From a bacterium (lineage in GTDB: Bacteria; Zhuqueibacterota; Zhuqueibacteria; Oceanimicrobiales; Oceanimicrobiaceae), in NCBI GenBank assembly GCA_046757025.1, contig JBHHXN010000048.1, forward strand, positions 1-33,060: a stretch of DNA of 33,060 nt. Direction: 5' to 3'. The position numbers and the translations under genes are program-made. How positions within the stretch are numbered: the stretch's first letter is position 1; each line of letters begins with the position of its first letter. The notes under the pieces were generated by a model, which made no database searches, had not been told where the DNA came from, and was given only the letters and a program-made list of their open reading frames with translations. This document shows positions 3,140-4,371 of the stretch, piece after piece.

Positions 3140-3226
3140 GCCGAAGTGGTGAAACTGGCAGACGCGCACGGTTCAGGGCCGTGTGTCCGCAAGGACGTGT
3201 GGGTTCGAATCCCACCTTCGGCACCA
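3140..3226 (+). tRNA. tRNA-Leu(CAG)
   Basis: Acceptor stem GCCGAAG/CTTCGGC, anticodon arm CACGG-TTCAGGG-CCGTG, long variable arm GTCC-GCAA-GGAC, GGTTCGAATCC T-arm, encoded ACCA end. Confidence 0.97.
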
Positions 3227-3260: not shown

Positions 3261-3305
3261 AAAAGCGGCAATAAAAAGAATTTCAACTTGTTTATTGCCG
3301 CTTTT
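3261..3305. terminator. bidirectional intrinsic terminator
   Basis: Inverted repeat AAAAGCGGCAATAAAA / TTTTATTGCCGCTTTT between the convergent tRNA and zinc-ribbon gene. Confidence 0.8.
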
Positions 3306-3309
3306 GCGT

Positions 3310-3328
3310 TTTTTGTAACCTACAAAAA
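3310..3328 (-). promoter_or_regulatory. candidate bacterial SECIS element for the zinc-ribbon gene
   Basis: TTTTTGTA-GGT-TACAAAAA perfect 8-bp stem; the loop begins with G 21 nt after the UGA. Confidence 0.6.
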
Positions 3329-3332
3329 TAAA

Positions 3333-3542
3333 TCAGTTCGCTCACGTAAACCCTTTACCGGGCAAACAACCACCCAGGCTCTGACCGGAATCGCTGCCGG
3401 CAGAAGCAAAGGTTGACAAAATTTTTTCTGGGAACGGAGCACCGCATTCAGGACAATTCAAATCCTTCCCGTCGGCGCCGATTTTCTGCAACACGTCGAA
3501 TTGAAATTCACAATTCTTACATCGATATTCATAAATTGGCAT
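3333..3542 (-). CDS. FmdB-family zinc-ribbon protein, candidate selenoprotein (UGA at 3344-3342 read as Sec; otherwise ends at 3342)
   Basis: MPIYEYRCKNC...CPECG zinc ribbon; ATG at 3542 with GGAG SD. C-terminus CLPGKGFT-UGA-Ala-Asn-UGA followed by a SECIS-like hairpin. The family call is solid; Sec readthrough is inference. Confidence 0.85.
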
Positions 3543-3557
3543 CCGGTTCTCCAAATG

Positions 3558-4077: not shown

Positions 4078-4371
4078 ATGCCAACTTTTATTCGTCTGGT
4101 CAACTTGACTGAACAAGGCGCCAGAAACATGAACAAATTGCCAGCCATGATTAAGGAAACCGAAGACATCATGGAAAAACACAACACAAAATTGCTCCAT
4201 CTTTACACGACTTTGGGCAATTACGATCTGATAACGATCATCGAAGCGCCCGACGCCGCCACCGCAGCAAAGGTCTCGGCACTCATCGCAGCCCAAGGCA
4301 ATTTTCGAGCGGAAACCCTGGCGGCCGTGACCATCGAAGAGTACATGGAAGGCGGTGTGGAAGAAAAGTAA
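4078..4371 (+). CDS. GYD domain-containing protein
   Basis: MPTFIRLVNLTEQG...YTTLGNYDLITIIEAPD...ETLAA pattern; AAGGAG SD. Confidence 0.88.
   Translation: MPTFIRLVNLTEQGARNMNKLPAMIKETEDIMEKHNTKLLHLYTTLGNYDLITIIEAPDAATAAKVSALIAAQGNFRAETLAAVTIEEYMEGGVEEK

Follow-up and report, generated by a model that had tools for sequence, protein, structure and literature searches.

The window, the whole stretch of DNA that was analysed (33,060 nucleotides), carries on its minus strand a small gene of the FmdB family, the product of which scores 59.8 bits against the TIGR02605 profile (cut-off 31.3). The gene begins with the ATG at 3542-3540 and continues for 66 codons up to the residues GGCLPGKGFT, where it meets a TGA (3344-3342) that is followed by GCG, AAC, and a second in-frame TGA at 3335-3333. 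The database record of the protein is 66 residues long. With the first TGA read as selenocysteine (Sec), the product would likely be a selenoprotein of 69 residues, composed of a zinc ribbon, a Gly/Ser linker, and a tail with the arrangement Cys59...Sec67-Ala-Asn. A sequence-only reading of this DNA had described a CxxC/CPxCG ribbon, a Gly/Ser-rich linker, a lone Cys, and GFT-UGA, with a second UGA two codons further on, and all of these elements are found among the features of the locus:

3333..3542, minus: full coding sequence if UGA67 encodes Sec (69 aa, ending GGCLPGKGFT-U-AN, final TGA included)
3548..3552, minus: GGAGA, Shine-Dalgarno-like by its sequence only, 5 nt before the ATG
3393..3542, minus: FmdB zinc ribbon, residues 1-50, with Cys8/11 and Cys30/33 (TIGR02605; confident in the structure model, pLDDT 88-93 for residues 1-40)
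3345..3392, minus: Gly/Ser-rich tail with the lone Cys59 (3368-3366) and GFT, predicted to be disordered (pLDDT 52-58 across residues 41-69, with U modelled as C)
3342..3344, minus: in-frame TGA, likely Sec67 (TGA in 126 of 127 genes, relatives and the window gene together)
3333..3341, minus: Ala68-Asn69 and the likely true stop (TGA 3335-3333); the second stop is frame-specific in relatives
3310..3328, minus: weak SECIS-like hairpin in the 3' UTR with an 8-bp stem and a GGU (or A-GGU-U) loop, in a register that differs from that of close kin
3261..3305, both strands: strong 15-bp hairpin that probably serves as an intrinsic terminator in both directions (z -5.2 on one strand and -4.4 on the other)

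The hairpin at 3261-3305, which folds at -20.8 kcal/mol (z -5.2) on the minus strand and is followed there by a U run, sits between two convergent genes, FmdB (minus) and tRNA-Leu (3140-3226, plus), and was not called by a consensus terminator scan. The SECIS-like hairpin is distinct from it, as had been proposed. The neighbours of the window gene (RlmB, a GYD-domain protein, tRNA-Leu, and SmpB) represent a housekeeping context, with no redox genes. The GYD-domain gene (4078-4371, plus) lies between rlmB and the FmdB gene, whereas two relatives of the same family (L004 and L023) have an uninterrupted row of rlmB, zinc-ribbon gene, and smpB.

Gene samples

Five samples of genes were gathered, from related genomes (61 genomes, with 50 of about 154 matches taken), a GTDB pattern scan that was blind to the codon after F[ST] (at least 121 loci), the Acidobacteriota (301 genomes, with a pattern that demanded any stop or Trp codon, and was thus blind to Cys twins), the Chloroflexota (201 genomes, by profile search, with the best 30 loci read), and metagenomes (56 loci). 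Once identical copies had been removed, the first four samples provided 233 genes, of which 127, including the window gene, end in C-x(1-9)-F[STG]. These relatives are not independent, given their kinship; judged by their record titles, they come from several phyla, and their identity to the window protein ranges over 27-61%. All 62 aligned members match the FmdB family in a profile search, and C59 and F65 are invariant in alignment A1, in part because of how the members were selected. Carriers account for at least 38 of the 61 genomes searched in the class of the window. Among the cultured, Sec-positive carriers is Longilinea arvoryzae (locus L127), with the predicted ending GHFS-U-AG. The RNA runs listed (n = 16) gave a value for shared words of only 0.04.

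Stop codon, extension, and hairpin across the family

The sequence-only reading had predicted that the stop after endings of the GF[ST] type would be overwhelmingly TGA in Sec-positive genomes, followed by a G-loop hairpin, and this is borne out by the genes gathered, in which 126 of the 127 distinct genes ending in C-x-F[STG] have TGA, and 114 have a hairpin at +19 to +27 with a G in the first two loop positions. The sole TAA belongs to a gene with a Cys-rich tail and no hairpin, in a genome with no detected Sec genes. In the 76 other FmdB genes that served as a control, the stop codons are divided among TGA (34), TAA (28), and TAG (14). Haft and Gwadz asked for at least 10 examples with TGA in all of them, a standard against which the family presents 126 of 127.

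The short extension that follows the TGA is also marked. In 122 of the 126 genes, codon +2 or +3 is a further in-frame stop, a count that falls to 3 and 2 when the two alternative frames are read. The codon after the UGA encodes Ala or Gly in 119 of the 126, with all eight synonymous codons in use, a conservation that is judged on one or two residues only, and synonymous variation is also present in the codons that precede the UGA.

A G-loop hairpin at +19 to +27 is present in 82 of 92 members, in comparison with a mean of 5.3 in shuffled sequences (maximum 12, 100 shuffles). The same test is passed by nine of the 76 other FmdB genes, several of which are tail variants with a short extension, and by 44 of the 1401 TGA-ended long ORFs of the window genome. 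The stem sequences differ from gene to gene, as they would be free to do in a 3' UTR. The same signature was recovered without the tail pattern in the Chloroflexota and in metagenome contigs. Judged from these genes, the arrangement across the relatives goes far beyond chance.

Selenocysteine machinery and co-occurrence

The window genome contains selA, selB, a TGA-containing selD, and one tRNA-SeC, so that the machinery of the host is in place. A heuristic scan of this genome returned 79 candidate UGA sites, most of which are probably noise. The candidates include, by motif, what we take to be SelD, a GrdB-like protein, a hydrogenase large subunit, a thioredoxin-like protein, and a methyltransferase, and the loops after the UGA of the SelD, GrdB-like, hydrogenase, and thioredoxin-like genes (CGUGA, GGC, CGGGU, and GUU) are of the types found in the FmdB family. 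Three of the sites presumably represent selenoproteins, these being an arsenite-methyltransferase-like gene with SCU (C23 near 38396, minus), a thioredoxin-like gene with WUAC (C37 near 17630, plus), and a GrdB-like gene with VUPMC (C2 near 8374, plus).

Two further observations concern this genome. Besides the Sec-type selD on C73, a second SelD domain, free of TGA, lies in a 755-residue open frame (G000:C344:1415-2341). An in-frame TGA on G000:C6 (near 86952, minus) stands within ITMT-U-GCPTEP, with 195 codons open before it and 79 after it and a strong GGU-loop hairpin, and is a candidate for an uncatalogued UxC selenoprotein.

The form had been expected to depend on the presence of the sel genes, and it does track the Sec machinery. 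The close relatives provide little contrast, given that 56 of 60 have selA. In the GTDB scan, among the matches listed, 49 of the 54 members lie in selA-positive genomes, as do 44 of the 65 other genes. Four of the five selA-negative hosts of members among these matches, together with one from the related genomes (G046), have selB and/or tRNA-Sec; the fifth case (L168) has a Cys-rich tail and no hairpin, in a genome without any detected Sec gene.

A further comparison comes from the Acidobacteriota, in which selA is present in 230 of 301 genomes (G202, flagged as unpublished, being counted only in this tally). The pattern was matched in 39 genomes, 37 of them selA-positive, and the two selA-negative matches (G377 and G467) have Cys-rich tails and lack a hairpin, and neither selB nor tRNA-Sec reaches the cut-off in them, although G377 has selD. 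The Sec-tail form is thus present in 37 of 230 selA-positive genomes versus none of the 71 selA-negative ones. One counter-case is G127 (L079, an assembly of 2.3 Mb), which has a Nitrospirota variant with a hairpin, whereas selA, selB, and tRNA-Sec were not found and selD is partial; incompleteness of the assembly is a possible reason. The link with selA was examined in the related, GTDB, and Acidobacteriota genomes.

Probable selenocysteine at the apparent stop

The proposal that the apparent stop of this zinc ribbon may be Sec is thus supported by the identity of the stop, the second stop, the hairpins, and the link with the Sec genes. Recoding of the UGA as Sec across the Sec-tail FmdB family is, on this comparative evidence, very likely. 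The insertion of Sec at UGA67 in the window copy is probable, at roughly 0.8, and is less sure than that of the family because this copy has the weakest hairpin, which folds no better than shuffled sequences and is shifted in register. Neither the best 150 protein representatives nor the related-genome and GTDB genes contain a homologue with Cys in place of the U, so that the usual proof by Sec/Cys pairs is not available here.

The decoding mechanism of the Sec-tail FmdB genes is the standard, ordinary one. By analogy with the standard bacterial pathway, SelB with Sec-tRNA would bind the G-loop hairpin just past the UGA, Sec would be inserted at UGA67, and two further codons would be translated before termination. 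If this is true, the annotation of a common small protein of Sec-using bacteria stops short of the residue that is likely to be the active one, and gene callers have cut a three-residue ending both in the window and in relatives from several phyla.

Possible role of the tail

In the product, Cys59 and Sec67 might alternate between reduced and selenenylsulfide states, with a thioredoxin-type partner that might re-reduce the pair and a zinc ribbon that might serve for structure or docking. A redox arm of this kind, formed by Cys and Sec and carried on a zinc-ribbon scaffold, has about an even chance of being correct, and is favoured because a same-strand WCxxC gene adjoins (within 700 nt) 14 of 71 Sec-tail genes (15 matches, one doubtful) versus none of 43 other FmdB genes, although these thioredoxin-type neighbours come from only about three to four lineages. 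In the Acidobacteriota and Chloroflexota the neighbour is TrxA, which lies upstream, and in the class of the window it is a DsbH-like thioredoxin on the downstream side; a CoA-disulfide-reductase-like gene follows two members. For the annotation of the surroundings of the genes, 68 of 108 neighbouring ORFs were scanned. A Foldseek search with the structure model returned no match at E <= 0.001, only generic zinc-ribbon and rubredoxin folds, and the sequence search of the PDB recovered generic zinc fingers only, with no informative solved relative.

The main rival to the redox arm accepts the insertion of Sec and makes the tail a second metal site, for the handling of Cu, Hg, As, or Fe-S, for example, rather than a thiol-redox arm. 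The metallothionein-like Cys-rich tails of sister FmdB genes, often in the same genomes, are in line with this, as are a member (L175) that lies behind an ArsR-family gene and the CC/CU motifs tied to metals in the SAO system, in the available part of the preprint (bioRxiv 10.1101/2022.07.06.499078). The tail provides just two chalcogen ligands, however, with a variable spacing (the Cys lies 4-11 residues before the stop), and the genes that recur nearby encode thioredoxins and CoA-disulfide-reductase-like proteins rather than metal transporters. A metal site appears less likely than the redox arm.

Beyond the redox arm itself, a broader picture may tentatively be drawn, which we rate below it. 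The Sec-tail genes would form a widespread, Sec-obligate group with no Cys twin, absent from the catalogues examined, in which a disordered Cys/Sec arm and thioredoxin would constitute a redox switch or relay, and this arm may have been built more than once (as C...U, U...C, and UxxC), opposite the form with the Cys-rich tail. A switch or relay of this type would provide a first mechanistic handle on the so-called FmdB regulator.

The hairpin of the window copy and the remaining alternatives

A hairpin at SECIS distance had been noted in the window, and the stem arms TTTTTGTA-GGT-TACAAAAA are indeed found at 3328-3310, with a loop that begins at +25 (the U of the UGA being 1), although this copy is atypically weak. 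The stretch from the UGA to +45 folds at -4.5 kcal/mol (z 0.07), with 101 of 200 shuffles folding equally well, and the hairpin is the weakest of 126 family genes, in which the median is -12.1. It does not pass the -3 stem filter of the analysis itself. Given that this small hairpin is not significant alone, the case for recoding rests on the relatives. The proposed GCG/CGC lower stem is present in the minimum-energy fold of the window, but conservation of this element can be ruled out, since no more than 29 of 126 genes pair nt 4-6.

Bacterial SECIS elements are described, in the available text of PMC13188914, as having a loop of 3-9 nt, a stem of 4-16 bp, a G in the first two loop positions, a distance of 16-37 nt from the UGA, and a free energy of -7.5 kcal/mol or lower. 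The window hairpin fits this consensus in its loop size, stem length, G[G/U] loop start, and spacing (8 bp, GGU or A-GGU-U, 21 nt from UGA to loop), whereas its energy, over 45 nt, misses the threshold, which is reached by 110 of 126 members, in a comparison where the length of the folding window may differ from that of the published program. In close kin, AACC pairs with GGTT around a TGTA loop. The window keeps TGTAGGTT, but its 5' arm is a run of T, and a new stem forms around GGU, three bases further on. Remodelling of the SECIS is plausible, since the loop and spacing match the published N1-G[G/U]-N-N2 pattern, and the register shift fits a remodelled SECIS, but would also fit a decaying one. 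A metagenome scan for very close kin, which might have clarified this odd hairpin, returned none, the nearest full-length match being 51% identical.

It is therefore conceivable that the family consists of selenoproteins, while the SECIS of the window copy has decayed, and translation mostly ends at the first UGA to yield 66 residues. The weakness of the hairpin and the loss of the ancestral pairing point in this direction. We nevertheless consider it improbable, given that the 8-bp stem is perfect, the A-GGU-U loop at +25 lies inside the range of the family (+19 to +27) and occurs in relatives too, and UGA-Ala-Asn-stop is intact. By the same measure, in addition, the selD hairpin of the window genome is about as weak (-3.1 versus -2.8 for the window gene), and an AU-rich GGU-loop SECIS in the 3' UTR has been accepted for SaoC, in the available part of bioRxiv 10.1101/2022.07.06.499078.

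Far less probable is that the UGA is an ordinary stop family-wide, and the hairpin a terminator or mRNA-stabilising element. Every database entry examined does end at this point (of the best 150 of 25,081 protein representatives, 116 terminate in F[STG] and none has a U), and TGA is common in the window genome, where it ends 1405 of 3860 long ORFs. An ordinary stop, however, leaves unexplained the near-exclusive use of TGA, the frame-specific second stop, the Ala/Gly codon with its free third base, the G-first loop at a fixed distance, and the absence of the form from the 71 selA-negative genomes, while the window already has a separate strong terminator. That an altered genetic code or leaky read-through places Cys, Trp, or Gly at the UGA is scarcely credible, given that no support for it was found, that TGA is so frequent an ORF end in this genome and the only UCA-anticodon tRNA reported is the tRNA-SeC, and that the pattern goes with the Sec genes across phyla.

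Relation to known selenoproteins

The probable Sec of the window FmdB protein has a precedent in the same family. In the available text of PMC2398784, an FmdB-family selenoprotein is predicted from two Global Ocean Sampling (GOS) reads, and the same entry is tabulated as U/CxxU or UxxU in PMC9312934 and PMC13188914. It shares the TIGR02605 domain and a predicted Sec with the window protein, but belongs to the long-tailed 'GWYETD' subfamily, and its U takes the place of a Cys within the ribbon, in the first CxxC motif. In the window protein, all four ribbon Cys, including Cys8 and Cys11, are encoded by Cys codons, and the U represents a separate, C-terminal site for which no Cys twin was found.

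The C-terminal site appears to be real, widespread, and uncatalogued. In the available parts of PMC9312934 and of the 119-family table of PMC13188914, no C-terminal Sec is given for FmdB, and only the GOS-type site is repeated. The terms 'FmdB' and 'zinc' are absent from the main text available for BSepDB (PMC13326102), deep-Sep (PMC12013277), and SelCysML (PMC13745706), as are 'FmdB', 'zinc ribbon', and 'TIGR02605' from the BSepDB supplement, which may be incomplete. No selenoprotein model in NCBIfam (June 2026) fits the Sec-tail group, and no C-terminal Sec in the FmdB family was encountered in the literature outside subscription papers, the families of Haft and Tolstoy (2025) being covered through a review table only. 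Literature that joins 'FmdB' and 'selenoprotein' through formylmethanofuran dehydrogenase refers to an unrelated namesake. A C-terminal Sec without a Cys twin would escape any search that relies on Sec/Cys pairs, and PGAP, according to the authors of bioRxiv 10.1101/2022.07.06.499078, cannot predict a C-terminal Sec.

The closest parallels in form are SaoC (Cys-Sec-COOH) and KCU-star/DUF466, which, as described in the available part of that preprint, also have a stop-like C-terminal Sec and a 3' UTR SECIS with a GGU loop, and were missed by annotation. They are not homologous, and have an adjacent CU and clear CC homologues, whereas in the Sec-tail FmdB proteins the Cys is 4-11 residues away and 1-6 residues stand after the U. 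The eukaryotic selenoprotein S, in which the penultimate Sec is proposed to pair with an upstream Cys (in the available text of PMC3628699), provides a functional analogy only; it is a membrane protein with a eukaryotic SECIS, and no homology is claimed. The dual CXXC motif small selenoprotein (NF041197) is likewise small, with two CxxC motifs and Sec, which, going by the name of the model, lies between these motifs, but its matches are weak (best E 0.0069) and limited to six of 62 members, and the window protein does not match it.

Cysteine counterparts and variants of the tail

Genomes without Sec had been expected to have Cys at this site, an expectation that failed. No Cys was found at the U position after F[STG] in the best 150 of the 25,081 protein representatives, nor in the 171 genes from the related-genome and GTDB samples (among the matches listed), and Sec-negative genomes instead lack the Sec-tail form.

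The ending GF[ST], which had been suggested as the mark of the group, is its commonest ending, but is too narrow to define it. Beyond the F[STG] group, the combination of TGA, hairpin, and short extension occurs in a further 21 genes. These include Chloroflexota variants with C...GG-U-GI and endings such as CAPSSGG-U and CGPVG-U, and a Nitrospirota variant, GGG-U-G[IV]xSC-TGA (L079, L124, L132, and L140), in which a Cys follows the U, the hairpin overlaps the final stop, and three of the four hosts have selA. The Cys partner may thus stand before or after the U, depending on the lineage, with a spacing of 4-11 residues where it precedes the stop. In short FmdB genes with at least two Cys in the last 12 residues, the signature is present in only three of 55.

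Two long-tailed 'GSGWY' FmdB genes that also belong to these 21, L064 (U-GPKC) and L123 (U-KTC), both from position 301 onward, have G-loop hairpins. They group with the long-tail subfamily that lacks Sec (SH-aLRT 98), which suggests a separate gain of the C-terminal Sec. The ribbon tree (48 residues, a random subset of 116 rows, a quick search, and 8 of 112 branches starred), the labels of which miss members with weak hairpins, including the window gene, is too weak to count the origins of the Sec tail.

Two single genes depart further from the common form. In L150, which has a GFT-TGA-G end and a hairpin, some 35 extra in-frame residues after STRFT part this end from the ribbon, in the manner of an insertion or duplication, and L245 has a GGFK-U-C-TGA tail with a hairpin, in which an adjacent U-C pair is combined with an upstream Cys.
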